From NCBI GenBank assembly GCA_040904565.1, contig JBBDTI010000081.1, positions 1 through 17,753 on the forward strand: a stretch of DNA of 17,753 bases, in the 5' to 3' direction. The notes beneath the pieces were generated by a model. The model was not told the origin of the DNA. It worked only from the letters and a program-made list of their open reading frames with translations, and did no database searches. A program made the translations under genes and the position numbers. Positions 90 to 16,397 of the stretch are shown piece after piece. Position 1 is the stretch's first letter. Each line of letters opens with the position of its first letter. The stretch is from Rhodothermales bacterium. Its GTDB lineage: Bacteria > Bacteroidota > Rhodothermia > Rhodothermales > VXPQ01.

Positions 90-1010
90 TTAGCGCAGAG
101 CACGTAGCCAGTCATTCACCTTCTTCACGACGACCGCCGCGACGGCCGTTCGGGCTGCGTTCACAACCGTGTTCGAAAAGTCGCGCCCCTGGTCGACGCG
201 TTTCTTCGCTCCCTTGCGGGCCTTTTTGGAGCGCTTTTTCAGCGTTTTGGACAGTTCGTCCGCCGCATCTTCCAGTGCCCGAACCGACCGCGCCGTAGAA
301 TCCGCCAGCGATTCAGCGATCTCGTCCGCACGCCTTGACGCATCCTTCGAGACGTGTCCCGCTCGCCGAGATACGTCCTTGCCGGCTTTTTCCGCTCGGC
401 GTGAGATCGTTTCTCCAGCTTCTCTAGCACGAGCGGAGAGCTCCTCGCCGGCATCTCGCGCGTGTTCCGTCAAATCGCCGCCCCGTTCCGTAACGAACTC
501 GCTGACGTCGTCGGCAGACGCTGCGGCTCGCCGCAGTTGTACGGCAAGAGCTTCTCCCAGCTCCTCGACATAATCACCGGCACGCCCCCCCAGCTCGTCG
601 GCATAATCACCGGCACGTCCTCGCAGCGCGTCCGCCTTATAGCGTGCGCGATCCGTCAACGACGCAGGCTCCGAGCGAAAGGCGCTCGAAAGCAGTCGGC
701 CCGACACGATACCTGCGCCCACGCCAAGCAGTACGGCCAGGACCGGATTCTCGTCCACCCATCCTTTTGCTCGGGAGCGGGCCCGGTCGAGATCGATATT
801 CGAGACTTCCTCGCGAAGAGACCGCACCGCTTCGTTCATTTCCTTGCGTGCTCGTTCGTAGGCCTGTGTCAGCTCATCGGCCTGGCGGTCCCTCCAATTT
901 TCCTGTGTGTGCGGTTCGTCGCCCGTTCCGCCGGACGTATTACCTGACCGTTGATTTCCATTTGCGCTCGGTTGATCGACACCTGCCTGTTCGTGCTCTT
1001 CCATGGCCAT
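90..1010 (-). CDS. DUF883/ElaB-like membrane-anchored protein with a LEA/apolipoprotein-like helical repeat domain
   Basis: 306-aa ORF. The internal motif WVDENPVLAVLLGVGAGIVSGRLL resembles the ElaB/YqjD 'VxxxP-hydrophobic-GxxxGxxxG' anchor and is followed by Ala/Glu/Arg-rich 11-mer repeats. Purine-rich AGAAGG precedes the ATG. Confidence 0.75.
   Translation of the reverse strand: MAMEEHEQAGVDQPSANGNQRSGNTSGGTGDEPHTQENWRDRQADELTQAYERARKEMNEAVRSLREEVSNIDLDRARSRAKGWVDENPVLAVLLGVGAGIVSGRLLSSAFRSEPASLTDRARYKADALRGRAGDYADELGGRAGDYVEELGEALAVQLRRAAASADDVSEFVTERGGDLTEHARDAGEELSARAREAGETISRRAEKAGKDVSRRAGHVSKDASRRADEIAESLADSTARSVRALEDAADELSKTLKKRSKKARKGAKKRVDQGRDFSNTVVNAARTAVAAVVVKKVNDWLRALR
558..623 (-). 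repeat. Intragenic 33-nt tandem duplication (GRAGDYADELG / GRAGDYVEELG)
   Basis: 558-590 and 591-623 share CATAATCACCGGCACG exactly and have similar flanks. Confidence 0.85.
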
Positions 1011-1085
1011 ACCTTCTGTAAATATTCGTGTGCTACAACAATCGATGTATTTCTGTCGATGAGGATCTCGATCGGGCCGGGCGTA

Positions 1086-1310
1086 CTACCTCCGCCTCAA
1101 GACACCGATAAGAAAACCGACGACAAATCCTGAAAGCAGGGCAAGCTCCGGGCGAACGCGTATCCATGCTCTAACGTCATCCTGCCACAGCGCCTCCCGG
1201 CCTCCTCTCCCTTGCGGTGTCCGATAGCCGGACGATCGCTCGTCGGACGAGGCGCGCCCCGTGACGGACTGCGCGGGCGAGGGCCCTGATGTTGACGGGG
1301 TATTCGGCAT
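1086..1310 (-). CDS. Small ElaB/YqjD/DUF883-like tail-anchored membrane protein
   Basis: C-terminus WIRVRPELALLSGFVVGFLIGVLRRR matches the DUF883 C-terminal TM helix with basic tail. It starts 23 nt after the stop of the upstream paralog. Confidence 0.75.
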   Translation of the reverse strand: MPNTPSTSGPSPAQSVTGRASSDERSSGYRTPQGRGGREALWQDDVRAWIRVRPELALLSGFVVGFLIGVLRRR

Positions 1311-1333
1311 GAGGATGCACCAACCGCTTCGAC

Positions 1334-1678
1334 TTATCGTTTCGACATCAGTACGCCCAGAACGACGCCGATCACAAAAGACGTCAACAGTGTCCCACCC
1401 GGGTTATCCCGCACGAACGTACGACTGCTCTTATATGCATCGGACGCCTGCTCTCCGATTCGGTCCGCGGCCCGGCCGAGTTGCTCGAACGACTCCGCAG
1501 CGGCCCGCTCGAATTCCTCGAGTTCCGCAATCTCTTCCGGCGTCATTCCGGCCATTCCCGACGTGCGATCCGCTTCTTCGGACGGGCGCCCGTCCGTCGA
1601 GCCTTCTGCCTGTGCTTCAGCCGCATCATCTCCCGCCAACGGTGCGGTACCTTCTTCCTTCTTAGACGTCATGGTCAT
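1334..1678 (-). CDS. ElaB/YqjD/DUF883 family protein
   Basis: Charged helical N-terminal region, then FVRDNPGGTLLTSFVIGVVLGVLMSKR. SD-like TAAGGTG lies just upstream of the ATG. Confidence 0.8.
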   Translation of the reverse strand: MTMTSKKEEGTAPLAGDDAAEAQAEGSTDGRPSEEADRTSGMAGMTPEEIAELEEFERAAAESFEQLGRAADRIGEQASDAYKSSRTFVRDNPGGTLLTSFVIGVVLGVLMSKR

Positions 1679-1760
1679 ACACCTTATATATTACACATCC
1701 TTCTAGAGCGTCCGTTCTACGCACAAACCGACGACTCGAACCCAAAAACGGCTCCGTCGG

Positions 1761-1800
1761 CTCTCCTTCATTCTTTATAACTCTCCTTCATTCTTCATAA
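1761..1800. repeat. 20-nt tandem direct repeat in a divergent intergenic region
   Basis: CTCTCCTTCATTCTTTATAA (1761-1780) and CTCTCCTTCATTCTTCATAA (1781-1800) are 19/20 identical. Confidence 0.9.
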
Positions 1801-2093
1801 CGCTGAGAAGCGGATTCCTTCCACGTCCACGATCTCTTTCGGACAAATGACCCGCTTTTTGCAACATATTTACTATTTTTCGCTTTACATGAGTCGGCAG
1901 CGGCGAAGAGGGTTTTTCCTGCCTCTCAAGTCCTCGTCGTCGGCATGGTTCGTCCACCGGGGATGAACCCGGAACCATTGGTGCGGACAACCATTTTCCA
2001 GCCGAGACCCGCCAGAGAAGGCGCTCACGGCTGTCGGTGACGTTGTCAGCGACAGCGTCCTGCCGGTACTACGACGTCCCATATTATCCCTCT

Positions 2094-5000
2094 ATGCGAT
2101 TTCTACTGACGGTTCTCCTTTCGGCGGCGGTGATAACGATCGCCCTGCCTACGTTTTCCGCGCAGATGGAGGCGACAGCCCAGCTCGAATCGACGACGGC
2201 TGAGCGCGACTTTGCACAGGCGTACGAACTGTTTTCCGGCCGGCTCTATCGGGCTGCCGCCCATTCATTCGCGGCGTTTCTAAGACGACATCCCGACCAC
2301 GTCAATGCGGCCGACGCCCTGTATTATCAGGCGGAGGCCTCGATGGCGTTGGGACACGATGAAGAGGCCGTAGCCCTCTTCACCCGGATGGAACGGCGTT
2401 TCCCCCAGCATCCACTGGCGGCCACGTCGCGCCTTGCGCTCGGTAACTATCTCTATAGCACGGAGCAGTACGAACGGGCCATCGACGTCCTTTCCGAGGT
2501 CCTGGCAGATGAACCGGGGGCTGAGATGTCGTCGACGGCGCTCTATTGGATGGGTGAGTCGGCGCTTAATCTGGACCGTAACGAGGAGGCCCTTGACTAT
2601 TTCCATCGGGCAGCGGACTCCTATCGTAACACGGAGACGGCACCGGTCGCGCTGTATGCCATCGGCTTCACTCAAGTAAAACGAGGCCGCTACGACGCCG
2701 CTGCCGAGGCCTTCGAGCTGCTTGCCGCCCGGTACCCCGAATCATCCTATGCCCGCAACATCGGGCTGGCCCTGGCGGAGGTGTACTACGAGCTGGGCGA
2801 CTATCGCCGGGTGATCGAGGAGATCGAGCGCCGGATGGGAACGCTGGGTGACGACGCCAGAGAGCGAGGACTCTTCCTTCAGGCCGAATCCTACAATCAC
2901 CTTCGAGACAGCGAACAGGCCATCGTCCATTATCGTCGCTTTACGGAAAGCAATCCGGAAAGTCCCTATCACCGCCGCGCCCTATACGGTCTCGGATGGA
3001 ACTACTATTTCCAAGGTGTCCACCAGTGGGCGATCGATCAGTTTGCCGAGGTGCGCCGTGGTCACGGAGACGATCTTGCAGCGCGCGCGACATATTATGA
3101 GGCTGTCAATCGCGGCCTCGCCCAGGAAATGGGGTCGGCGATCGAGCTTCTGGAGACCTTCATCGACCGGTGGCCGGAGCACGAGCTGGCGGACCGGGCC
3201 CTGTTCGAGCTGGCCGTAGGCTACTACGGGCAACGCCGCTGGAACGATGCCCACGAGGTCTTCACGGACGTCGTGGAGCGCTACCCGAATAGCGAGCAGG
3301 TGGGGGAGGCACTCTATTACCGGGCGAACGCGGCCGTCGCGATGGGAGACTTCGAAGACGCCCTCGAAAGCTTCGATCGTGCCGCCGATCTCGGGGCCGC
3401 CCCTCCCCGCCTTAGAGAGGAAGTGCGATTTCAGCGGGCATGGCTTCAGTATCGTAGCGGCAACTACGCGCCGGCTCTCGATGGCTTCCTGGAGATCTAC
3501 GACGACGCGCCGCAGTCCGAGCGCGGCCAGGAGTCCCTCTTCTGGGCGGCCGAGAGTCAGTTTCAGCTCGGAAATCTGACGCGGGCTGCCGAGATGTTCT
3601 CCACGTACATTCAGGACGTTCCCGGCGGACAACATCGGGACGCCGCCCACTACGCGCTCGGATGGACGCATTTCCGCCGCAGCCAGTACGGCCCTGCGGT
3701 TCGGGAATTTCAGACGTTTCTCAACCAGTATCAGGAGTCGTCGTCCACCGAGTTCGTTCCCTATCGGACCGATGCCCTTCTCCGGCTCGCAGACAGTCAT
3801 TATGCCCTCAAGCAGTATTCCGAGGCCATTCGCACCTACCGCCGCGTCATCGAGCAGGCCGGCGATTACGCACTCTATCAAATCGCCCAGGCGTTCTACA
3901 ATTCGGGAGACGCCTATGAAGCCGTCAACGCCTATCGCGAACTGCTCGAGTTTTACGCAAGCAGTCAGTGGGCGGAAGAGGCTCGCTATAACCTGGGATA
4001 CGTGTTTTTTCAGAACCAGGATTACGAACAGGCCATCGAGGAGTACCGCACGCTGATCGCCAGGCATCCAAACGACCCGCTGGCGGCACGAGCCCAGTAT
4101 GGGATCGGTGACGCGCTGTTCAACGACGGTCGTCCCGAAGAGGCCATCGAAGCCTACCAGGTCGTGCTGGATCGCTACCCGAACAGTCCATACGTCGCGG
4201 ATGCCGCATCCGGAATTCAGTATGCGCTGATATCGCTGGGTGACGAAGAGCTGGCCAACGAGATGATCGAGGAGTATCTGGCGGAAAATCCCAACTCGCC
4301 CCTGGCCGACGAGCTCCGCTTTCGGCGCGCCGAGGTAAACTACCAGAGCGGCCGCACGAACGAGGCGCTGCGCGAACTGCAGCAGTTCGTCCGGACGAGC
4401 CAGAACGAAGGCCTTTTCCCCGAGGCGTACTACTACCTGGGGATGATTTTCGATGAACGGGAGCAGGACGAGGAAGCGGCCTCGTATTTCAGACAGATTG
4501 TGGAGTCCTATCCCGGCAGTGCTCGATTTCACGACGCCGCTCGAAGACTTGGCTTCATGTACACGGAAGGGGATCGACCGCGTGATGCCCTGGAGGTCTT
4601 CCGCCAGCTCGAATCAGACGCCGAGGGCGACGAGCGGATTGTCGCCGAGGCGCGATACGGGCAGGGAATGGCGCTCATGCAGCTTGGAAGACCCGAAGAA
4701 GCGGAGCGCCTCCTTCAGGATGCCATCGATGCCGCGCCTGACGCACCGGAGACCTACCCGGCCTATCTGGGTCTCGCCCGCGTCTACGAAGAAGCGGATC
4801 GGCGCCAGGATGCAATCGCCATGTACAGGCAGGTCGTAAGAAACAGCCGCGACGAGATCGGCGCGGAAGCCCTCTATCATCTCGGCGCGCTGCTCAGAAC
4901 GTCCGGCAACCCGCGAGCGGCTCTGGACGAGTTGGGACGGATGTCCGTGCTCTTTACAGGCTTCACGGAGTGGGTGGCTCGAGGCTATCTGGAACAGGCA

Positions 5001-5120
5001 CGTGCCTTCCGCGACCTGGGACAGAACGGCGACGCTACGCAGATGTACGACCGCGTCATCAATGAATTCAATGGAACGTCTTTCGCAGAGACGGCCCGAC
5101 AAGAGAAGGAGGCGCTTTAG
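2094..5120 (+). CDS. Large periplasmic tetratricopeptide repeat protein (CpoB/BamD-like TPR units)
   Basis: ATG 2094 gives the Sec signal peptide MRFLLTVLLSAAVITIALPTFSA-Q and is preferred over GTG 2037. The whole mature protein consists of TPR units such as 'ERYPNSEQVGEALYYRA', 'RHPNDPLAARAQYGIGDALF' and 'DAAHYALGWTHF'. Confidence 0.93.
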   Translation: MRFLLTVLLSAAVITIALPTFSAQMEATAQLESTTAERDFAQAYELFSGRLYRAAAHSFAAFLRRHPDHVNAADALYYQAEASMALGHDEEAVALFTRMERRFPQHPLAATSRLALGNYLYSTEQYERAIDVLSEVLADEPGAEMSSTALYWMGESALNLDRNEEALDYFHRAADSYRNTETAPVALYAIGFTQVKRGRYDAAAEAFELLAARYPESSYARNIGLALAEVYYELGDYRRVIEEIERRMGTLGDDARERGLFLQAESYNHLRDSEQAIVHYRRFTESNPESPYHRRALYGLGWNYYFQGVHQWAIDQFAEVRRGHGDDLAARATYYEAVNRGLAQEMGSAIELLETFIDRWPEHELADRALFELAVGYYGQRRWNDAHEVFTDVVERYPNSEQVGEALYYRANAAVAMGDFEDALESFDRAADLGAAPPRLREEVRFQRAWLQYRSGNYAPALDGFLEIYDDAPQSERGQESLFWAAESQFQLGNLTRAAEMFSTYIQDVPGGQHRDAAHYALGWTHFRRSQYGPAVREFQTFLNQYQESSSTEFVPYRTDALLRLADSHYALKQYSEAIRTYRRVIEQAGDYALYQIAQAFYNSGDAYEAVNAYRELLEFYASSQWAEEARYNLGYVFFQNQDYEQAIEEYRTLIARHPNDPLAARAQYGIGDALFNDGRPEEAIEAYQVVLDRYPNSPYVADAASGIQYALISLGDEELANEMIEEYLAENPNSPLADELRFRRAEVNYQSGRTNEALRELQQFVRTSQNEGLFPEAYYYLGMIFDEREQDEEAASYFRQIVESYPGSARFHDAARRLGFMYTEGDRPRDALEVFRQLESDAEGDERIVAEARYGQGMALMQLGRPEEAERLLQDAIDAAPDAPETYPAYLGLARVYEEADRRQDAIAMYRQVVRNSRDEIGAEALYHLGALLRTSGNPRAALDELGRMSVLFTGFTEWVARGYLEQARAFRDLGQNGDATQMYDRVINEFNGTSFAETARQEKEAL

Positions 5121-5131
5121 CGGTTATCTCG

Positions 5132-6940
5132 ATGATGTATAAAAGCCGACATTTCATGACCTGCATCCGCCCCTATGCCGTCGTTCTCTGCGCGCTGCTC
5201 CTTGCATCAGCATTGGTCGGACCCTCGCCCGTGAGCGCGCAGGACGATCCGAACGATACCCAGCAGGGGCAGGTCCTACCCGACATCGCCCCGCGCGTCG
5301 TGGAGATCCGAGGCAACCTGGAGCTTTCGCTGCCCACACTGCAGCGCCAACCGTTGATCGGATTCAACCCACCGCCTCGGGTAGCGGCGGTACCGCCCGA
5401 TCGTCGGCCGTACGTGGAAGACTACAAACAGGAAAGCATCGACCTCCCACCGAGCCCTCTGCGTCCGCCAGACCCCCCTCCCGCGGCGTCGTTGATTGGT
5501 GGTACGCCGCTCAACGGGTCGCTTAAAGCGGCGGGCGGACTCTACCTCAGCCGATCGCTTGATTTTCGGTCGGAATGGGGCGTGACGGATCGTGCCGCCA
5601 TCTATTCGCGGTTGGACTACGAGGGAAGCCTGGGACACGACGCAGCCGGATCCTTTGAGGAGGACGTAACCGCTTCCTATGATGCACTGGATGCCCTGGT
5701 AGGGGTTCAAAACACCACGAGATGGGCCACCGTGGGTTTCGAGATCGACGGATTCCTGAACGCATACCGCCTCTTCGGTGCCTTTCCGGCCGCCGATTAC
5801 CCGGCGCTGCGCGACGACCCTCCTTTCAGAGACGGCCGCGGTGGCGGCGCGTTGCTTCGGGTCACGACGCAGGCAGCGACGGGTGTAGACCTCGATCTTA
5901 GCGTACGCTACGGCGTGGCCCAGTACGAGACGGATGCTCTCAGCGGAGTGGTCGGAACGGGCGCGAGCGTAGACCCCGACGCATTCCTCCGCGAGGAGGC
6001 CTCGCTGGAGCTGGAGAGCCACCTCGGCGTTCCGCTCTCCGAGCGATCGGACGTCCTGGGGGACGTTCATTTCACAGGTTTGGGCTTTGGTGAGACCATT
6101 GGAAGCGACGTCGTGATGCTCGACGGGGCCGGCGGCGCGCGCCTACGAGTCGAAAATCGGGTCGAAATCACGGGTCTGGCCAGGCTGATGAGCTTCTCGC
6201 AGGGGGACACGTCATCCGCCTTTTTCGCCTCGCCCGATCTGCTCGTCAACATCTATCCGACCCGGGGCTTCCGCCTGTACGCACAGAACGCACCTCGCGC
6301 GGAACACCGGTCGACGGCGTCGATGTACCGCCTCAACCCGTATCTGGTTGACGGTCCCCTCGTACAACCGACGATCTATACGGTAGATGCTCGGGCCGGA
6401 GCTCGCGTACAGATGGGCCTGTTTGAGGCCGACGCTCATCTGGGCTACTCCCGAGCTCCCCATTTTCGGTATTTCGAGCGTGCAACGAATGCCGAGAGCG
6501 GCGGCTATAGACATGGCATGATCGCAGCGCGCTACGACGGTGCCGCCATTTCATACGTCGGGGGCGACGTTTCCGTGAGTCTGCCGGCGGGTTTTCACGT
6601 GAGCGGTGGTTTGACCGTCCGCGACGGAGCGTTGACGGACGATGATCGGGACATACCCTATTTCGCTCCCATGATCGCTCGAGGCGGACTATCCTGGTCC
6701 GTGGGCAGGGCGTTCATCCAAGCCACAACGATCTTTGAGTCCGCCCGCGACGTGGATGCCGCGGGAAGTCGCCGTCTCGGTGATTTCTTCGACCTGGATG
6801 TCGACGCATCCTACCGCTTGACCGATCGTCTTGGAGCCCTCCTCCGGTTCCAGAACCTCAGCAGCGGCTACCTGGAGCGCTGGGAGCACCACGAGAGATC
6901 GCCGTTCATCATTTCTGCGGGGATCCAGGCGCGATGGTGA
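5132..6940 (+). CDS. Outer-membrane beta-barrel protein, TonB-dependent-receptor-like (TPR-associated type)
   Basis: Signal peptide ends VSA-Q and is followed by a Pro-rich N-terminal segment and amphipathic beta-strands. The TBDR-like C-terminus is 'FFDLDVDASYRLTDRLGALLRFQNLSS...FIISAGIQARW' with a terminal aromatic residue. It starts 11 nt after the TPR stop; the true start could be 5132, 5135 or 5156. Confidence 0.8.
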   Translation: MMYKSRHFMTCIRPYAVVLCALLLASALVGPSPVSAQDDPNDTQQGQVLPDIAPRVVEIRGNLELSLPTLQRQPLIGFNPPPRVAAVPPDRRPYVEDYKQESIDLPPSPLRPPDPPPAASLIGGTPLNGSLKAAGGLYLSRSLDFRSEWGVTDRAAIYSRLDYEGSLGHDAAGSFEEDVTASYDALDALVGVQNTTRWATVGFEIDGFLNAYRLFGAFPAADYPALRDDPPFRDGRGGGALLRVTTQAATGVDLDLSVRYGVAQYETDALSGVVGTGASVDPDAFLREEASLELESHLGVPLSERSDVLGDVHFTGLGFGETIGSDVVMLDGAGGARLRVENRVEITGLARLMSFSQGDTSSAFFASPDLLVNIYPTRGFRLYAQNAPRAEHRSTASMYRLNPYLVDGPLVQPTIYTVDARAGARVQMGLFEADAHLGYSRAPHFRYFERATNAESGGYRHGMIAARYDGAAISYVGGDVSVSLPAGFHVSGGLTVRDGALTDDDRDIPYFAPMIARGGLSWSVGRAFIQATTIFESARDVDAAGSRRLGDFFDLDVDASYRLTDRLGALLRFQNLSSGYLERWEHHERSPFIISAGIQARW

Positions 6941-7216
6941 TAGACGTCGAACAACGAATCCGTCGGCACGGCGCCGAGACGGTGCTGGAGAAAGGGGCTT
7001 GGCGTGCCGAAGGACGGATACGAGCTGCTCGAAGGTCCTGCTACGCGAACGGCGTGAATACGAAGCGGAGCGGTTTAATGACATGCGCCAACCTCTTATT
7101 TTGAACGATGTACGCTCTCGCTAAGGGTCAGCCTGGTGGTGCCCTCACGGACCGATCAATTACGTATCTTGTAGATCACCGTGGAGAGTCCTTTGCAGCA
7201 ACACACTGAACATTCC

Positions 7217-7444
7217 ATGCCGACGCCTCCACGAGATCAAATCGAAAGCGTCCTTGCCGATATCGTCAGGGAATCGCTGACAGCGAGCGAGTCCGTCGCC
7301 GTCCCAGGCCTGGGCACCTTCGCGGTCGAGCACAAGACCAGTTCAAGGGTACGTTCCGAGCAGGGCGAGCTAACGTTCATTCCCCCGCGCGACGAGATTG
7401 TGTTTACTCCCGAGCAGCAGGATTTTGCTACTGATGACCGTTGA
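7217..7444 (+). CDS. HU/IHF-like (HU-CCDC81-like) small protein
   Basis: 'IVRESLTASESVAVPGLGTFAVEHK...IPPRDEIVFTP' matches the HU fold pattern (VxIxGxGxF...IPxxxxxxFxP). ATG 7217 is preferred; GTG 7181 is the alternative. Confidence 0.8.
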   Translation: MPTPPRDQIESVLADIVRESLTASESVAVPGLGTFAVEHKTSSRVRSEQGELTFIPPRDEIVFTPEQQDFATDDR

Positions 7445-9161
7445 ACTGATAGACGAGATCGCGCGTCGCCTTGGCTTGTCGACCGACGAGGTCGCACCGG
7501 CTCTCGATACCGTGACCGAACGCATACGTCAGCAAGTAGCCCACTACGGTTACGCGCGGCTGGCACATCTCGGCACGTTTCGGAGCCGAGATGGCTCGAT
7601 CGTTTTCGAGCCCGAACCGGCCCTTACCGAGAGAATCAACGCGCGGTTTGCCGGACTGAATGAACTCGTGCTTGAACCTGCTGAATCAGATCCCGACATC
7701 GACGAGGCTGCCGGTCCGGGCGCCGCGTCGGACGCACGCGACTGGGCGGGAACAGAGGAAACCGACGATCGCCCATTGAATCCGTGGGAAGGTACGGAAG
7801 CCCCGGGTGATCCGGATTTATACACCCACGATGCCACGTCTACTCCCGCGGAAGATGACCGGCCGCTGATGGACGCCGACGGGATCGAAGCGGGGCCGGA
7901 AGCAACCGGGGCCGAGTTCGACGGAGTCGAAGCGGGGCCGAAGTCCGCCGGAGCCGAGTTCGACGGAGTGCAGGAGCCCGATCGAGAGCCTTCTGACATA
8001 GAAGGTGTGACGGAACCGGAACGAGCGTCCGCCGAGATGGACGGCGTCACGGAACCAGAGCGGGATTCCTCTCCCGGAGAAGGTATTACTGCGCCGGATC
8101 GACCGGCTGAGGATGTGGATGCCGCGGAATCGGACGCAGATGCGGATGAGGGTAGTGGTGCGTTTTGGACGGACGTAGAACGTCCGGCTTCGGACCATCC
8201 GCTCGGACCCGAGTCGGAGCCCTCATTCGAAGAGGCGGACTTCTCCGTGCTCGAAGCTCGGGAAGATTCGTCGGCTACCGGTGACGAAGCCCAGCAACCC
8301 ACGGTTTCCTGGGAACCGCTCGGCGCGGCCGAGCGCGAGACGCACGCTCCCGGAGATAAGAAAGGCGAACCGACCTCGTCCGACGCCGTCGATCGTGAGG
8401 GATCGGGTGACGAACCTCGTTCGTCGGTCGACGACATTGATGACGCTCGGGCAGGAGACGAACAGGCTGACGCAGCCGGGGACGACTCGGGTGAAGCGGG
8501 GGACGCCCCCGCGGCATCTTCTCAACGTGGTATGAAGGACCGCTCGTCGACTCCTGGACGGATGAGCAGCGATGGCCCCGTTCGCACGATTCGCGCGCCT
8601 TCCCGACGTTCGAAGTCCCGTCGCGACATGAAGCCGGTCTGGTTCGGCGTCGGAATTATCGTTATCGTAGCCGCCGCGGCGATCGCTTATTTCACGATCC
8701 CCACCCCATCGTCCGGCCCCGACCAAGAGCCTGTCGTTCAGTCGGAGTCCATGCCGCCGCCCAGTGAGGACGGTGAAAGCGTGCTCGACGATCCCGATGA
8801 TGCGGCGGCGGATGCGCCTGGCGACGAGCCTGCCGACGCACCGGAAACCGTACCGGGCGACGCCGAATCCAGTGTCGACGCCGTCGAGACGTCCCTGAGA
8901 AGTGACGAAGGGATCAATCCTGCCGAGGGAGGATTCACCATCGTCGTCTATTCCGACACGGAAGCCGCTCCGGCCGAAATTATCTTGCAGGAGTACCAGG
9001 AAGAAGGATATCGCGCCGGCCTACTCACGTCGGAACAGGACGGAGTCACCCGCTACCGCGTCGGCGTCGGCCAGTTCGACACGCTCGACGAAGCCGTACA
9101 ACAACGCGATGACCTGGCGGGAAGCGACCTGCCGGGGGACGCCTGGATTCTGCGACTGTAA
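7434..9161 (+). CDS. HU-like N-terminal domain + acidic disordered linker + single TM helix + C-terminal SPOR domain protein
   Basis: N-terminus 'ELIDEIARRLGLS...GYARLAHLGTF...IVFEPEPALTERIN' is HU-like. Basic RRSKSRR precedes the TM helix VWFGVGIIVIVAAAAIAYFTI (~8637-8699). C-terminus 'FTIVVYS...YRVGVGQFDTLDEA...LPGDAWILRL' is SPOR-like. ATG 7434 overlaps the upstream gene by 11 nt. Confidence 0.85.
   Translation: MTVELIDEIARRLGLSTDEVAPALDTVTERIRQQVAHYGYARLAHLGTFRSRDGSIVFEPEPALTERINARFAGLNELVLEPAESDPDIDEAAGPGAASDARDWAGTEETDDRPLNPWEGTEAPGDPDLYTHDATSTPAEDDRPLMDADGIEAGPEATGAEFDGVEAGPKSAGAEFDGVQEPDREPSDIEGVTEPERASAEMDGVTEPERDSSPGEGITAPDRPAEDVDAAESDADADEGSGAFWTDVERPASDHPLGPESEPSFEEADFSVLEAREDSSATGDEAQQPTVSWEPLGAAERETHAPGDKKGEPTSSDAVDREGSGDEPRSSVDDIDDARAGDEQADAAGDDSGEAGDAPAASSQRGMKDRSSTPGRMSSDGPVRTIRAPSRRSKSRRDMKPVWFGVGIIVIVAAAAIAYFTIPTPSSGPDQEPVVQSESMPPPSEDGESVLDDPDDAAADAPGDEPADAPETVPGDAESSVDAVETSLRSDEGINPAEGGFTIVVYSDTEAAPAEIILQEYQEEGYRAGLLTSEQDGVTRYRVGVGQFDTLDEAVQQRDDLAGSDLPGDAWILRL
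7878..8102 (+). repeat. Degenerate intragenic tandem repeat, two 42-nt units then 39-nt units
   Basis: Units start at 7878, 7920, 7962, 8001, 8040 and 8079: DGIEAGPEATGAEF / DGVEAGPKSAGAEF / DGVQEPDREPSDI / EGVTEPERASAEM / DGVTEPERDSSPG / EGITAPDR. Confidence 0.85.
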
Positions 9162-9221
9162 CGAGCCCCGAATCTCCATCCCACTACACCACGTAGCCAT
9201 CAACCGTCTTACCGAACCACG

Positions 9222-9959
9222 ATGATTCTCGCGCTGTTGCTACAAGAAGTATCGCTGCCCGCCGACACGGCGGCCGCCATGTCTCAGGCTGCCGGCCCCG
9301 AGCAAACGACGCTGCTCGAGACGCTCGTCCTGGGTGGATGGATCATGCTTCCCATCTTCCTGCTCTCCATTCTTGCCATCTTTCTCTTCGTCGAGCGATT
9401 GGCTACGATTCGGAAGGCGAAGACCGATCCAAATGCGATTACGCAGCGGATCAGGGACTACGTTCAGGCCGGTGACGTACGCGGCGCGATGGGCTACTGT
9501 GAATCCCAGGACAAGCCCGTCACGCGCCTTCTTCGCCATGGCCTCGAACGGCTTGGCAGGCCGATCTCGGAAATTCAGGATGCCGTTCAGGCCCAGGGCA
9601 AGCACGAAGCCTTCGAGCTAGAGAAACGAACGGATCTCCTGGCGAGCATCGCCGGCATCGCGCCGATGCTCGGCTTCCTGGGGACGGTCACGGGAATGAT
9701 CCAGGCCTTCCAGGAAATTCAGAACCTGCAGGGAAATGTAAACCCGAGCGTTCTTGCAGGAGGTATCTGGGAAGCACTCCTTACCACGGCAGCCGGACTC
9801 GTCGTCGGCATTCTGGCCTTTTTCTTCTACAACTTCCTGCTGACGCGGATCAAACGGCTCATCAACGACATGGAGCGGACGGCGACCGACTTTATCGATC
9901 TGCTCCAGGCTCCCGCACCGCAGCGCTCGCGATCCGAAGAGCGCGTGACGAATTACTAG
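9222..9959 (+). CDS. exbB: MotA/TolQ/ExbB proton channel family protein
   Basis: Three TM segments with the signatures IAPMLGFLGTVTGMIQAF and GGIWEALLTTAAGLVVGI. ExbB versus TolQ cannot be settled by eye. Confidence 0.93.
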   Translation: MILALLLQEVSLPADTAAAMSQAAGPEQTTLLETLVLGGWIMLPIFLLSILAIFLFVERLATIRKAKTDPNAITQRIRDYVQAGDVRGAMGYCESQDKPVTRLLRHGLERLGRPISEIQDAVQAQGKHEAFELEKRTDLLASIAGIAPMLGFLGTVTGMIQAFQEIQNLQGNVNPSVLAGGIWEALLTTAAGLVVGILAFFFYNFLLTRIKRLINDMERTATDFIDLLQAPAPQRSRSEERVTNY

Positions 9960-9992
9960 ACCGTTCGTTCTGACTATCCGCCCTGGCGGTGC

Positions 9993-10011
9993 CGCGTCAT
10001 TGAATGACGCG
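9993..10011. repeat. Perfect 9-1-9 inverted repeat between exbB and exbD
   Basis: CGCGTCATT-G-AATGACGCG. Confidence 0.85.
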
Positions 10012-10036
10012 TCACTGCGACACGGCACCGACGACC

Positions 10037-10441
10037 ATGAACTTCGACTTCTCCAGCACCAACAAGCCGCTGGCTGAATACAGCCTCGCGGGATTGACGG
10101 ACATCGTGCTGCTCTTGCTCATCTTCTTTCTGCTCACGTCGAGCTTCATCCCCCAGTTCGGCATCCAGGTGAACCTGCCTCAGGCCGCGACATCCGCGCC
10201 GATGGAGGATCAGTACGTATCCGTGGCGATCACGAACGACGGCCGATTCTACGTGAATCAGGACCTCGTGCCTCGCGAACAGCTGCTGGATGCGCTCCGC
10301 GATGCGCAGGGTACGCGATCGGCACTCGTACTGCGCGCCGACCAGGACGCCACCGTGGGGCAGTTCGCTACGGTCGCCAATCTGGCCAAGGCCCTGAACA
10401 TGCGGGTGCTTATGGCGACGGAGCGGGGGCAGCTACCGTAA
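10037..10441 (+). CDS. exbD: ExbD/TolR biopolymer transport protein
   Basis: TM segment LTDIVLLLLIFFLLTS has the conserved Asp; 'IQVNLPQA' and 'LVLRADQDA' are also typical. ATG 10037 gives a typical length; ATG 10004 is the alternative. Confidence 0.93.
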   Translation: MNFDFSSTNKPLAEYSLAGLTDIVLLLLIFFLLTSSFIPQFGIQVNLPQAATSAPMEDQYVSVAITNDGRFYVNQDLVPREQLLDALRDAQGTRSALVLRADQDATVGQFATVANLAKALNMRVLMATERGQLP

Positions 10442-10525
10442 CGGGCGGCAGAGCGCGGGCACCTACCTCCCGTGAGCGACGACCAAGAACGGCCGGCTAC
10501 CGTAAGAGGCAGCGGCGTGACGCCA

Positions 10526-11491
10526 TCAGTCGATCGACTTGAGGTTCGCCTCAATCTCTTCACGCCTCGGCTCCAGAAACGGCGGCAGCGCGATGGATTC
10601 ACCGAGGTGTTCGGGATCTTCATCGACGGCAAATCCGGGGCCGTCCGTGGCGATTTCGAACAGGATACCGTTCGGCTCGCGAAAGTACAGGCTCTTGAAA
10701 TAATAGCGGTTGACTCGCCCGCTGTTGGGGATCCCGATCTCATCGAGACGTTCGACCCAGGCCTCGTACTCCGATTCATTCGGCGTCCGAAATGCCACGT
10801 GATGCACCCCGCCTGCACCCGGCCGGGCAGGCTGCTCCCGCGGCTGTACGGCCACGTGCACTTCGGCATGCGGACCGCCGCCGCCCATTTCAAAAACCAC
10901 GACGCGTTGCATCCCTAGATCCGCCGCACGGTAGATGCGCGTCTGCTGCATCCCCATTACGCGGGTAAGCACCACCTCCGTCGCATCGATCCGTGGGACG
11001 CTCAGCACGACCGGACCGAGCCCTCTGATCTGGTGTTCGGGCGGAACCGCGCTCTCCATCCACGGAATGGAATCGACGCCTGCACCGCCATCGTCGATCA
11101 GCGTCAGTCGCTGCCCCTCCGGGTCCTCAAAATCGAGCACGAGGCGATCGTCCCGTTCCGTGACACCGTTCGACCGCACGCCCACCTCCGCGAGACGACC
11201 CTCCCACCACGCAAGCGCCTCCGAACCATTCACACGCAGATGGGTGCGGACGATGCTCCGACTTCCCCGCTGCTCGCTCGGCACGGCCCAGTCAAAAAAG
11301 GTGACGTCCGTTCCCGGCGAACCGACCGCATCCGCATAAAACAAATGATAGGCACGCACGTCATCCTGGTTGACCGAGCGCTTCACGAGCCGCATCCCCA
11401 TGGTTTCCGTATAGAACCGGTAGTTCGTGCGGATGTCCGCAGACACGGCCGTGAGATGATGAAGACCTTTCAGGCTGAGGGCTCCTTCCAC
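10526..11491 (-). CDS. Ring-cleaving dioxygenase, MhqA/MhqO-like (two-domain VOC/glyoxalase superfamily)
   Basis: Motifs GLHHLTAV, RLVKRSVNQDD, YHLFYAD, GAGGVHHVAFR, RYYFKSLYFREPNGILFEIATDGPGF and LGESIALPPFLE. Confidence 0.93.
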   Translation of the reverse strand: MEGALSLKGLHHLTAVSADIRTNYRFYTETMGMRLVKRSVNQDDVRAYHLFYADAVGSPGTDVTFFDWAVPSEQRGSRSIVRTHLRVNGSEALAWWEGRLAEVGVRSNGVTERDDRLVLDFEDPEGQRLTLIDDGGAGVDSIPWMESAVPPEHQIRGLGPVVLSVPRIDATEVVLTRVMGMQQTRIYRAADLGMQRVVVFEMGGGGPHAEVHVAVQPREQPARPGAGGVHHVAFRTPNESEYEAWVERLDEIGIPNSGRVNRYYFKSLYFREPNGILFEIATDGPGFAVDEDPEHLGESIALPPFLEPRREEIEANLKSID

Positions 11492-11593
11492 TGTGAAGCG
11501 TAGCGTTTCGTTCGTAATGCCGTGGAGGGTGGTAGGGGGCAGGGTAACAGGGTGGCGTGGAGTAGGATGGCGAGCAAGTGGGTAACCGCTTCC

Positions 11594-12640
11594 TCACCCG
11601 ATGCCGGCCACCAATTCCCGCCACGAAGATCGTTCGGTTCGCCCTTCCTTGCGCTCACCGAACAGGTAGCAGACCACATCTCCCCGTTCGTCGAAAAATT
11701 CGACGGAGTGCACCTCGTCGTTCTCAACCGGCTTCCTTACGACCCAGGCCGAAGCGACCTTTTCCATCTTCACGTGCAGGCTGAAGCCAGGATCGAGGAC
11801 GTTGTACCAGCCGCGGGCCTCCTTGAGACGATGAATGGGCCCCGTATGGATCTGGAGACAGCCGCGATTACCGACGAAGATCATGATGGGAAGCTTCGCC
11901 GCGGAAGCCCCTTCGAGTACGGTGCGAAGGTCATCCGGCGCCGCCGGACGTGCAAAATCGGTTCCCACGAGGCGGAATGCCTGCTGCCGGTCGACGCCGA
12001 AGTCACGCAGCAAGAAAATGAAATCGTGTGTGTCCGTGAGCCCGCTCCACGCATCTCGCAGCGCGTCGACGTCCACTTCCCTATCAGTCGTCGTTTCCTT
12101 TTTCTGCGGCCCGGGTTCGGGCTCTATACCGCCGGCCGGAGCGTTGTGACGGTACGTCTCGACCATATGATCGAAGTGTTCGACCGCACTCTCGTCACGA
12201 AGGTGCGTCTTATGTACCGCCGTACCGTACTCATCGAAAAACTGCAGGCTGCGCCGCGTACCCGTGGGCGTCTCTATCTGGACGGCAAACCCGAAGCTCC
12301 AGTGGTTGAAAAAGATCCGCAGGTCGATGTCCTCACCGAGCGTCCGGCCCATATGGTGATCCGGAAAGACGCGCGCGTCGGTATACCTACCCACTTTTTC
12401 GTGAACGAACGCGTCGTTTCGCGTGAGCGCCATCACCTCGCCGAGCCCTTCAAGATCGAGGAGCAAGTCTCCCCAGTTGTCACCCAGCCGGGTCGACGTC
12501 ACGCCGCATTCCGCCGCGACGAGCTCCGCCTCGCTCACGCCGAGACCGTCCGCCGCATCGCGAGCCCGAAGGTCCGGTTCGCGTTCGATGAGCGCCTTCC
12601 AATCGGATCTGAGATCGTCCGTCGTCGAATAGGGGGTCAT
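11594..12640 (-). CDS. hemS: Hemin-degrading/heme-trafficking factor, HemS/ChuS/HmuS family
   Basis: Motifs RARDAADGLGVSEAEL, LGEVMALTRN..VHEKVG, IDLRIF, SLQFFD..G.AVHK, DTHDF (heme-ligand His position) and PIMIFVGNRGCLQIHTG. ATG 12640 is preferred; GTG 12676 is the alternative. Confidence 0.93.
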   Translation of the reverse strand: MTPYSTTDDLRSDWKALIEREPDLRARDAADGLGVSEAELVAAECGVTSTRLGDNWGDLLLDLEGLGEVMALTRNDAFVHEKVGRYTDARVFPDHHMGRTLGEDIDLRIFFNHWSFGFAVQIETPTGTRRSLQFFDEYGTAVHKTHLRDESAVEHFDHMVETYRHNAPAGGIEPEPGPQKKETTTDREVDVDALRDAWSGLTDTHDFIFLLRDFGVDRQQAFRLVGTDFARPAAPDDLRTVLEGASAAKLPIMIFVGNRGCLQIHTGPIHRLKEARGWYNVLDPGFSLHVKMEKVASAWVVRKPVENDEVHSVEFFDERGDVVCYLFGERKEGRTERSSWRELVAGIG

Positions 12641-12706
12641 GGTGGCTTCCGTTCCTGATTCATCTTCTGACGTCACGTGCCGGACAGCTTCTCCAGCAGC
12701 GGCTTT

Positions 12707-15539: not shown

Positions 15540-16397
15540 ATGACCGATCTTCGTCGCTATATTCCAGCGTGGATCAGGCGACCGGCTCGGTCGGTGCGCC
15601 GCACCTATAGGGAATTGACGTGGCGGAGTCGGTCCTTACCTGACTTCCTCATCATAGGTGCGCAGAAGGCGGGAACGTCCAGTCTGTTCGCCTACCTGGG
15701 CCAACACCCGCAGCTCATCCCGTCGCACATAAAAGAGGTCCACTTCTTCGATGGCGGACTGGACGAAGAGGTGGATACGTACGGCCTCGGAGAGGCGTGG
15801 TACAGATCGCATTTCCCCCGGCGCAGGATGCTGGGGCCGGATCGTATGACGTTCGAAGCGTCTCCGCTCTATCTATTCAACCCGCTGGCTCCCATGCGGA
15901 TCAGCGATCTCGTTCCGGAAGCCAGATTGATCGCCATTCTGCGGAATCCCACCGAAAGGGCTATCTCGCACTATCATCACTTCCGTCGGATCGGCTGGGA
16001 GTCACTTCCGATGCTCGAGGCGTTCCGCAGCGAGGAATCGAGGCTGGCGTCCGCTATCGAGCAAGAGTACTACAAAAGTCCATCATATATCCGCTACAGT
16101 TACAAACGTAGGGGGCTTTATCGGAATCAGCTCGCGCGCTATCTGGAGCACTTCCCGATGAGGAAGATGTTCATTGCGAGCAGTGAAGCATTCTTCGCAC
16201 GTCCCCGAACCGTGCTCGACGACGTGCTCGATTTTCTCGAGTTAGATGGGTACGTCGAGGCGGTCGACGTACGGCCTCGAAACGTCGGCTCGTACGAATC
16301 GAATTCGAACGCCGAGGCGCGCGACTATCTGGATGCGTATTTCCGTCCGCATAACGAAGCGCTCTTCGAGCTTATCGGACGACGCTTCAACTGGTAA
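15540..16397 (+). CDS. PAPS-dependent sulfotransferase (heparan-sulfate 3-O-/N-sulfotransferase-like domain)
   Basis: 5'-PSB loop LPDFLIIGAQKAGTSSL, KEVHFFD, EASPLY, 3'-PB RNPTERAISHY and C-terminal YFRPHNEAL. Confidence 0.93.
   Translation: MTDLRRYIPAWIRRPARSVRRTYRELTWRSRSLPDFLIIGAQKAGTSSLFAYLGQHPQLIPSHIKEVHFFDGGLDEEVDTYGLGEAWYRSHFPRRRMLGPDRMTFEASPLYLFNPLAPMRISDLVPEARLIAILRNPTERAISHYHHFRRIGWESLPMLEAFRSEESRLASAIEQEYYKSPSYIRYSYKRRGLYRNQLARYLEHFPMRKMFIASSEAFFARPRTVLDDVLDFLELDGYVEAVDVRPRNVGSYESNSNAEARDYLDAYFRPHNEALFELIGRRFNW

Follow-up and report, generated by a model that had tools for sequence, protein, structure and literature searches.

What do six co-oriented genes on a contig of a Rhodothermales bacterium do together, when their predicted products reach from the cytoplasm to the outer membrane and include a proton-channel motor? 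The window, by which we mean the whole stretch of DNA analyzed, is the entire contig JBBDTI010000081.1 (17,753 bp; contig C81 in our numbering) of a genome of 4.02 Mb in 95 contigs that is 94.9% complete. The six genes are on the + strand, span positions 2037/2094-10441 and encode, in this order, a tetratricopeptide repeat (TPR) protein, a barrel, two products with HU-like domains, the second of which also has a transmembrane (TM) helix and a SPOR domain, and the two motor subunits ExbB and ExbD:

2094-5120, + strand: periplasmic TPR scaffold of about 1008 aa; the open reading frame (ORF) is open from a GTG at 2037 (1027 aa)
5132-6940, + strand: outer-membrane barrel, 602 aa; the public copy begins at M9, position 5156 (594-aa form)
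7217-7444, + strand: small cytoplasmic HU-like protein (HU-CCDC81 domain 1, HU1); first ATG at 7217, open from a GTG at 7181
7435-9161, + strand: bitopic HU-TM-SPOR protein; ATG at 7435
9222-9959, + strand: ExbB/TolQ-type proton-channel subunit, 245 aa; MotA_ExbB (PF01618), 114 bits
10004-10441, + strand: ExbD/TolR-type subunit, 145 aa; ExbD (PF02472), 78 bits; last cluster gene in the window

An initial annotation of the window had listed these six genes, and their coordinates, domains and common orientation were all borne out by ORF reading and by comparison with Pfam and NCBIfam. It had also stated that the window lacks genes for TonB, TolB and Pal, and that no SusD, hydrolase or regulator is found beside the barrel. 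Both statements hold. There was no TonB_C, OmpA or TolB_N match on the contig, and the Pfam and NCBIfam scans found none of the features of a SusC/SusD polysaccharide utilization locus (PUL), i.e., a SusD-like lid, glycoside hydrolases or a regulator, among the window ORFs.

Of the seven genes of a cluster that is found again and again across Bacteroidota in the GTDB sense, which includes Rhodothermia, the window holds six. There is good support for describing this cluster as a conserved Ton-derived system of several parts, with its own dedicated TonB and a plugless transporter-like barrel that is paired with a giant TPR protein. We tentatively read it as a trans-envelope machine driven by the proton motive force (PMF) that serves a function like that of Tol-Pal.

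Conservation of the Gene Cluster

The barrel was searched for in 201 genomes of the phylum. It was found in 64 of them by a single-protein search and in 199 by a 21-sequence profile at E <= 0.001, of which about 140 (hand count) also had a match at E <= 1e-20; weak matches could not be distinguished from cross-matches to ordinary transporters, for which E-values as good as 4e-9 were seen in the genome of the window. Since the barrel is clear in only about 140 of the 201 genomes, the family is either not universal or too divergent in some families.

Gene neighborhoods were compared in 80 loci, covering about ±7 kb round barrel matches. The first 20 comprised six loci from the taxonomic order of the window, six from the remainder of its class and eight from other classes. 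The other 60 were chosen non-randomly so as to spread over families, and include three deliberately weak matches (L115-L117). Hidden Markov models were built from the first 20 loci, which consequently match by construction, and only genes on the strand of the barrel were counted. With thresholds of 1e-20 for the barrel, 1e-50 for the TPR protein, 1e-3 for the SPOR C-terminus, 1e-30 for ExbB, 1e-15 for ExbD and 1e-5 for the TonB-like protein, the barrel was found in 78 of the 80 loci, the TPR gene in 70, the SPOR gene in 49, the TonB-like gene in 38, ExbB in 34, ExbD in 33 and a separate HU1 in 11.

All six loci from the window's order had the arrangement TPR-barrel-(HU1)-SPOR-ExbB-ExbD, with TonB not adjacent. 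The six loci from other orders of the class all had barrel-HU1-SPOR-ExbB-ExbD-TonB, and the TPR gene was adjacent in two of them. The full arrangement TPR-barrel-SPOR-ExbB-ExbD-TonB was present in 19 loci from six families, TPR-barrel-SPOR-TonB without ExbBD in 11 loci from five families, and the TPR-barrel pair alone in 24 of the 80 loci, from 10 families; the remaining loci had other partial combinations. Conservation of the gene neighborhood had been proposed as a check on the initial annotation, and in these 80 loci the arrangement was found to be kept far beyond the window's own order, across the phylum. As the gene order recurs in this way, the six-gene arrangement is more than chance.

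The 11 loci from five families that keep the TonB-like gene without ExbBD tie this gene to the barrel and SPOR genes and not just to the motor. That it stays by these genes where the motor is elsewhere is the strongest genomic argument for their joint action. Three genomes with the TPR-barrel pair alone had TonB-like ORFs of about 300 aa elsewhere (E 1e-8 to 1e-12), in two cases with ExbB-ExbD adjoining, and the TonB-like profile found nothing in two further genomes of this kind.

In some loci the flanking genes hint at a connection with cell division and the resolution of chromosomes. In locus L057 an ftsK gene, an unknown gene of about 230 aa and an LPG_synthase_TM gene are directly upstream of the barrel (Pfam; region 1842-6017), and TonB is followed by a gene for an S41 peptidase. 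At the corresponding place L056 and L059 have ORFs that match the ftsK group by size and order only; the TPR gene is not adjacent in any of these three loci. L058 carries a gene for a Xer-like tyrosine recombinase two genes upstream of the TPR gene. No paper on the full TPR-barrel-SPOR-ExbBD-TonB cluster was found in open-access papers and bioRxiv.

A Dedicated TonB-Like Transducer

The initial annotation had described the locus as having no TonB or TolA. This is true of the window only. The ExbB-ExbD motor has its own TonB-type transducer; most other lineages have its gene in linkage with the cluster, and here it is located in trans, on contig C13.

A TonB-type gene directly follows ExbD in all six loci from the same class outside the window's order and is on the strand of the barrel in 32 of the 68 loci from other classes. 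In L055-L059, L064 and L067 the gene after ExbD encodes 228-287 aa with a TonB_C match (E 5.5e-10 to 9e-5, some of these matches being just below the cut-off of 24.6 bits). The ortholog in the window's genome is at C13:79759-80508 (+ strand, 249 aa). It was the only match among all ORFs of the genome in phmmer searches (1e-14 to 8e-41), and likewise the only protein at E <= 0.01 with the profile of the TonB-like family (E 3.4e-95). The start of its gene overlaps by 4 nt the stop of a 346-aa ORF, which we take from its N-terminal sequence to resemble methylthioribose-1-phosphate isomerase. Five more stretches matching TonB_C were found in the genome, on C57, C31, C15 and C13.

An alignment of 31 TonB-like orthologs showed conservation of an SxxxH motif in an N-terminal TM helix, of a GFIEVEFG…GRPV segment and of the C-terminal domain (CTD), which is preceded by a Pro/Glu-rich spacer. 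The C13 protein matches TonB_C at E 1.3e-9 and the NCBIfam model tonB_Cterm at 40.5 bits (cut-off 27.1), and scores 38.7 with tolA_full, under the cut-off of 59.45. Its AlphaFold2 model has a pLDDT above 85 across the CTD. This domain superposes on the CTD of E. coli TonB (1u07 and 2gsk) with a TMt of 0.70-0.76, or 0.70-0.73 for 1u07 alone, and a root mean square deviation of 2.2 Å, compared to a TMt of 0.33-0.49 for the CTDs of TolA (1tol, 3qdp, and 1s62). As modeled, the CTD of the transducer resembles TonB rather than TolA. Within the class a TonB-like protein was found at E <= 1e-10 in 56 of 61 genomes, with 0 of 5 in one family, and its gene is adjacent to the barrel locus in families f9-f11.

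The Outer-Membrane Barrel and Its Tether

Residues 1-36 of the barrel protein are a signal peptide and residues of about 37-125 a conserved, Pro-rich N-terminal tether that is modeled as disordered. No Pfam or NCBIfam family passes its cut-off. The sole match is to the tail of TonB_dep_Rec_b-barrel and is weak (E 0.026), and no Plug domain was found with Pfam even at E <= 10. The 54 homologs collected (565-640 aa) are annotated as hypothetical at most, and their named hosts are Rhodothermales or "Bacteroidetes bacterium."

The AlphaFold2 model of the barrel (mf5593c27d2a1, from an alignment of 32 homologs) has a mean pLDDT of 81.6. It consists of a signal helix, low-confidence residues 22-118 (594-aa form) and then about 22 β-strands, a number counted by hand from the DSSP elements. 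The best Foldseek matches of the model in the PDB were BtuB, FrpB, PirA, and OprC (E about 1e-16, TM-score about 0.6). A cross-phylum barrel profile of 21 members also has sequence matches to TonB-dependent transporters of known structure (5fp1 at 3.6e-9), and its sole long alignment, with BtuB1 (8blw), places profile positions 106-562 against residues 173-680, i.e., the barrel after the plug. The description of the protein as an atypical barrel resembling TonB-dependent receptors was therefore confirmed by fold, by structure search and by profile alignment, and the plug is absent. The barrel is a homolog, with about 22 strands, of the barrels of TonB-dependent transporters without their plug.

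The tether is the best-conserved part of the protein. Most of the invariant columns in the 32-sequence alignment are located there, including L41, P42, D43, P46, E50, I51, L55, P60, L62, R64-L67, G69, F70, and P72-P74, and when a single sequence was searched against other orders of the class, the match was often limited to residues 20 to 170, approximately. The tether carries the TonB-box-like motif LPDIAPRVVEIRG (aa 49-61, nt 5276-5314; …PRVVEIRG…), which in the cross-phylum alignment is matched by ELPDFVITGK, ELPEFIVTGK and similar sequences in other classes. The consensus of the SusC TonB box is DEVVV(V/T/I) (PMC10350073), and by its resemblance to this consensus the tether motif is a putative TonB box. 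A complex prediction for the tether (aa 22-125) and the CTD of the TonB-like protein (aa 150-249) gave 0.00 in two runs, which speaks neither for nor against binding.

The TPR Protein

The TPR protein begins with a signal-peptide-like sequence at position 2094 (MRFLLTV...), and a lipobox Cys is absent. It scored 297 bits with Pfam TPR_6 and 250 bits with the BamD model. NCBIfam TIGR02795, the TPR module of YbgF/CpoB, gave 366.5 bits (cut-off 90.1) in 11 tandem stretches, and the full-length CpoB model NF008068 gave 159.7 (cut-off 383). The ortholog of about 1000 aa counted in 70 of the 80 loci is directly upstream of the barrel wherever coordinates were read, and the two genes overlap or abut in several loci, e.g., at 5212/5215 in L064. 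The TPR protein and the barrel are the core pair of the cluster. The SPOR protein, the motor and the dedicated TonB often accompany this pair but can be separated from it.

The same genome has a 1124-aa ORF (C90:6091-9465, - strand) that matches both the TPR profile (1.4e-29) and the profile of the SPOR C-terminus (2.6e-15). This fused TPR-SPOR protein may have a function related to that of the cluster.

The HU and SPOR Proteins

The HU1 ORF scored 28.5 bits with HU-CCDC81_bac_1 (PF18174, cut-off 26). In the second protein an N-terminal HU-like domain 2 (HU-CCDC81_bac_2, PF18175, 21.9 bits, under the cut-off of 35) is followed by a linker that is long, acidic and disordered, by a single TM helix (…VWFGVGIIVIVAAAAIAYFTI…) and, in the periplasm, by a SPOR domain at the C-terminus (PF05036, 24.5 bits, cut-off 21). 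The two ORFs overlap by 10 nt, from the ATG at 7435 to the TGA ending at 7444. A frameshift between them was considered and ruled out, since the same split into HU1 (65-93 aa) and HU2-SPOR was found in 10 of the first 20 related loci. In the loci that have the SPOR gene, it is located between the barrel and ExbB or TonB where those occur.

The HU-CCDC81/TM/SPOR architecture of Bacteroidetes has been defined previously and was predicted to tether the nucleoid, although DNA binding by the HU-CCDC81 domains may have been lost (Burroughs et al., 2017, PMC5499826). The window agrees with the family described there: the HU-CCDC81 domains are cytoplasmic and the SPOR domain is periplasmic, with a disordered linker and a TM helix between them. 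It differs in that domain 1 is encoded apart, by a small ORF whose end overlaps with the start of the second gene. Linkage to ExbBD, TonB, TPR or barrel genes is not reported in the main text of that article, in which TonB, ExbB, and TPR each have 0 occurrences. A second ORF of the genome, C64:100139-101176 (- strand, 345 aa), matched the HU1 (HU-CCDC81-type) profile at 4e-8.

The ExbB-ExbD Motor and Its Paralogs

The TM segment of ExbD contains an Asp (…LTDIVLLLL…). Three MotA/ExbB paralogs are encoded in the genome, on C81 (the window), C83, and C26. The C83 locus has the arrangement ExbB-ExbD-ExbD that is usual for Ton in Bacteroidota, whereas the window locus has a single ExbD. The third motor of the MotA/ExbB family (C26:24793-26273) consists of a MotA-like gene followed by a gene with an OmpA domain (MotB-like).

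In NCBIfam the window ExbB scored 94.9 bits with the TolQ model (cut-off 221) and 58.4 with the ExbB model. The higher TolQ score was considered as a sign of Tol ancestry and dropped, because the C83 paralog behaves alike (72.1 versus 45.1) and the comparison thus does not discriminate.

Comparison With Ton and Tol-Pal

The system shares with Ton the ExbB/ExbD pair in the window, a TonB-type transducer with an SxxxH TM segment and a TonB-fold CTD (C13), and a barrel of about 22 strands that is homologous to transporter barrels and has a TonB-box-like N-terminal motif. It deviates from Ton in that the barrel is without a plug and has as its partner a protein of about 1000 aa made of TPRs, in place of a lid of the SusD or another type. 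The cluster includes a SPOR/HU protein, one ExbD is present compared to two at the C83 locus of the same genome, and there are no substrate-related genes. Since the plug was looked for and found absent, the cluster is an atypical member of the Ton kind.

With Tol-Pal it has in common a PMF motor with a transducer, a YbgF/CpoB-like TPR component, a proposed septal targeting and, at the thresholds used and as checked for the window's genome, one copy per genome. Unlike Tol-Pal it is without TolB and Pal, the CTD of its transducer is TonB-like and not TolA-like, its outer-membrane partner is an integral barrel and not a lipoprotein, and its TPR protein, with 11 tandem modules, is four times the length of CpoB. 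TolB_N had no match anywhere in the genome (94.9% complete), and no Pal-like gene was found at the locus, the six OmpA-domain matches of the genome all being off this contig. As a TolA-type CTD, TolB, and Pal were each looked for and not found, the cluster is not a member of Tol-Pal. A survey from 2025 found no identifiable tol-pal loci or pal genes in Bacteroidetes, and PorE was proposed as a compact stand-in (PMC12204202); the extract available of that article does not mention the cluster.

Possible Functions of the Cluster

The function that we favor, with a probability of about 0.4, is that of a Ton-derived, PMF-driven trans-envelope machine acting like Tol-Pal, i.e., tying outer-membrane invagination or integrity to septation. 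A role in division or at the outer membrane like that of Tol-Pal is plausible from the SPOR domain, the ftsK adjacency in some lineages and the lack of tol-pal in the Bacteroidetes survey. We infer that TonB engages the tether, that the SPOR protein directs the system to the septum, and that the system serves constriction or integrity of the outer membrane and not transport. In such a machine an ExbB5-ExbD2-type motor would pull on the N-terminal tether of the barrel via the dedicated TonB, the TPR scaffold beneath the barrel would organize the partners, and the SPOR domain would gather the complex where the septal peptidoglycan is denuded. Force generated at the inner membrane could then reach the outer membrane at the division site and link its invagination or integrity to septation, the function Tol-Pal has elsewhere. 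The initial annotation had likewise interpreted the locus as an envelope machine. The conserved gene order, the plugless barrel and the lack of tol-pal in the phylum survey (PMC12204202) strengthen this interpretation; its statement that TonB and TolA are absent holds for the window only.

A bolder version would make the cluster the long-missing Bacteroidota counterpart of Tol-Pal, a Ton-derived and independently evolved means of outer-membrane constriction that is perhaps coupled to the nucleoid by the SPOR/HU protein. This version we regard as somewhat unlikely.

Several observations weigh against a Tol-Pal-like machine. The barrel family is not universal or is too divergent in some families, and the modules are separable, as seen from the 24 loci with the TPR-barrel pair alone. 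Genomes of the window's order have the TonB-like gene at a distance from the barrel, of 123 kb in genome G036 and of about 30 kb in G003 and G008, and in the others at other places or on other contigs. Resemblance is the only ground for reading the tether motif as a TonB box. Promoter-like and terminator-like sites in 1000-10700 were not in excess of those in shuffled sequences (2 versus 2.6 ± 1.5 and 6 versus 6.5 ± 3.0, respectively). A gene for HemS/ChuX is situated 1.2 kb downstream of the cluster, in convergent orientation. The phenotypes of the Riemerella anatipestifer mutants described below, and the separate location of the TPR-barrel pair in that species, are to be counted on the same side.

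The explanation that survives best next to the favored one is that the motor, with its TonB in trans, is an ordinary Ton uptake motor that energizes plugged transporters, e.g., for heme, and that the TPR-barrel pair and SPOR are independent housekeeping neighbors. We consider this unlikely. R. anatipestifer has an exbB-exbD-tonB1 operon (RA0C_1191-1193) and an exbB-exbD-exbD-tonB2 operon (PMC4446302; PMC5109031; PMC8383284). We retrieved the tonB1 locus with a published qPCR primer, and the downstream gene was HI0933-like, as published. Riemerella ExbB1 scored 197 bits with the window ExbB compared to 116 with the C83 paralog, and ExbD1 scored 71 bits with the window ExbD compared to 28 with the C83 paralogs. 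TonB1 matched the profile of the TonB-like family at E about 1e-9 and had no Pfam match. From these scores Riemerella ExbB1-ExbD1 are probable orthologs of the window motor. The two systems are alike in having a single ExbD and a divergent TonB of the same family. They differ in that the window motor adjoins the TPR-barrel pair and has a SPOR gene beside it, whereas in Riemerella the TPR-barrel pair and exbB1-exbD1-tonB1 are at different loci and no SPOR gene was seen beside the latter. A protein of the HU-HIG type (HU-DNA_bdg + DUF4469) is encoded two genes upstream of exbB1 (L130, 2429-3148); it belongs to another HU clade than the HU-CCDC81 proteins of the cluster.

The TonB1 system has been studied only for its part in the uptake of iron and hemin. 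The tonB1 mutant was viable, with reduced growth and defective use of hemoglobin, hemin uptake was abolished only in the tonB1 tonB2 double mutant, and an E. coli tonB mutant given exbB1-exbD1-tonB1 could grow again when iron was limiting (PMC4446302; PMC5109031). These phenotypes keep an ordinary Ton motor in play, as do the lineages in which the modules are apart and the HemS/ChuX gene near the cluster, which may connect the motor with heme. The phenotypes would be explained just as well if a system with a different principal task cross-talked with uptake. In E. coli, Tol and Ton motors are known to cross-talk, and partial complementation is therefore no proof of function. A tonBA (tonB1) mutant was moreover found to have defects in growth and natural transformation without a reduced iron uptake (PMC8383284). 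An uptake motor is also at odds with the typical ExbB-ExbD-ExbD locus that the genome already has on C83, with the TonB-like gene staying by barrel and SPOR in the 11 loci without ExbBD, and with the conserved TonB-box-like tether that the barrel keeps.

An energized outer-membrane conduit strikes us as decidedly unlikely. Here the TPR protein and the barrel would form a gated channel for export of a polymer or envelope component, similar to AlgK/AlgE, PgaA, and BcsC or to TonB-dependent secretion of the Oar type. As a variant, small solutes would enter as through the plugless "Type S" SusC-type barrels, with the pull of TonB on the tether gating the channel. The TPR-barrel pair is the most constant one, being present in 70 of the 78 barrel loci, its genes overlap or abut in several of them, and a plugless barrel of about 22 strands would need occluding or gating. 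Naturally plugless SusC-type barrels exist, and an engineered plug-less SusC was functional (bioRxiv 2025.11.13.688124). The cluster thus resembles the TPR-plus-porin exporters in pairing a large periplasmic TPR scaffold with an outer-membrane barrel, and the "Type S" barrels in lacking a plug. It departs from both in having no synthase or PUL context, and in a barrel of about 22 strands that is transporter-derived, has a TonB-box-like tether and is linked to a motor. No synthase, glycosyltransferase, OPX, ABC exporter or PUL gene was found in the window or in the Pfam-scanned loci of its relatives, and the SPOR and HU partners are without an obvious role in export. The known TPR-linked porins have 16-18 strands as opposed to about 22 here. 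For Wzi the number is 18, and TPR-plus-porin export systems are summarized in the same source (bioRxiv 2022.02.11.480155).

It is very improbable that the cluster is a tether from nucleoid to envelope, in which the chromosome is held at the septal peptidoglycan by the HU-CCDC81/TM/SPOR pair, as predicted by Burroughs et al. (2017), and the other genes are bystanders: the architecture fits their family and ftsK and Xer-like genes are near the cluster in some lineages, but this accounts for only two of the six genes, leaves the linkage to ExbB/ExbD/TonB and the barrel unexplained, finds no TonB, ExbB, or TPR in the main text of that article and has to face the possible loss of DNA binding by the HU domains (PMC5499826).

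Bacteroidota include major bacteria of gut, mouth, sea, and soil, and the cluster is a concrete and testable candidate for the means by which their outer membrane is attached and constricted at division. Should the function be transport, a barrel that naturally lacks a plug, is coupled to TonB and has a TPR partner would still represent a novel form of Ton-dependent action, and the "TonB1 system" of Riemerella would also have to be reinterpreted.

Other Genes in the Window

DNA of the window was found in four public sequencing runs, all of them DNA and none RNA, from sediment metagenomes of one study; two of the four are marked as possibly being where this DNA came from. Outside the cluster the following genes were identified:

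10526-11491, - strand: VOC-family gene of the two-domain VOC/glyoxalase type; next after ExbD, convergent
11594-12676, - strand: two-domain HemS/ChuX heme-degrading gene; PF05171, 255.7 bits, and PF06228, 195 bits
12707-15067, - strand: DUF5916/CBM9 protein, 786 aa; DUF5916, 68 bits, CBM9-like match sub-threshold
15540-16397, + strand: sulfotransferase gene; follows the DUF5916 gene
90-1010, - strand: 306-aa protein with apolipoprotein-like amphipathic repeats; PF01442, 42 bits, far under the cut-off

Three + strand ORFs downstream of ExbD (10472-10918, 10935-11339, and 11522-12658) were considered as an extra ExbD or TonB and rejected; they had no family matches and are antisense to the genuine VOC and HemS genes of the - strand. 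The 786-aa DUF5916 protein is possibly another outer-membrane or surface protein. A homolog of the 306-aa apolipoprotein-like protein was found in three of the six loci from the window's order (L049, L050, and L051), encoded divergently upstream of the TPR gene.

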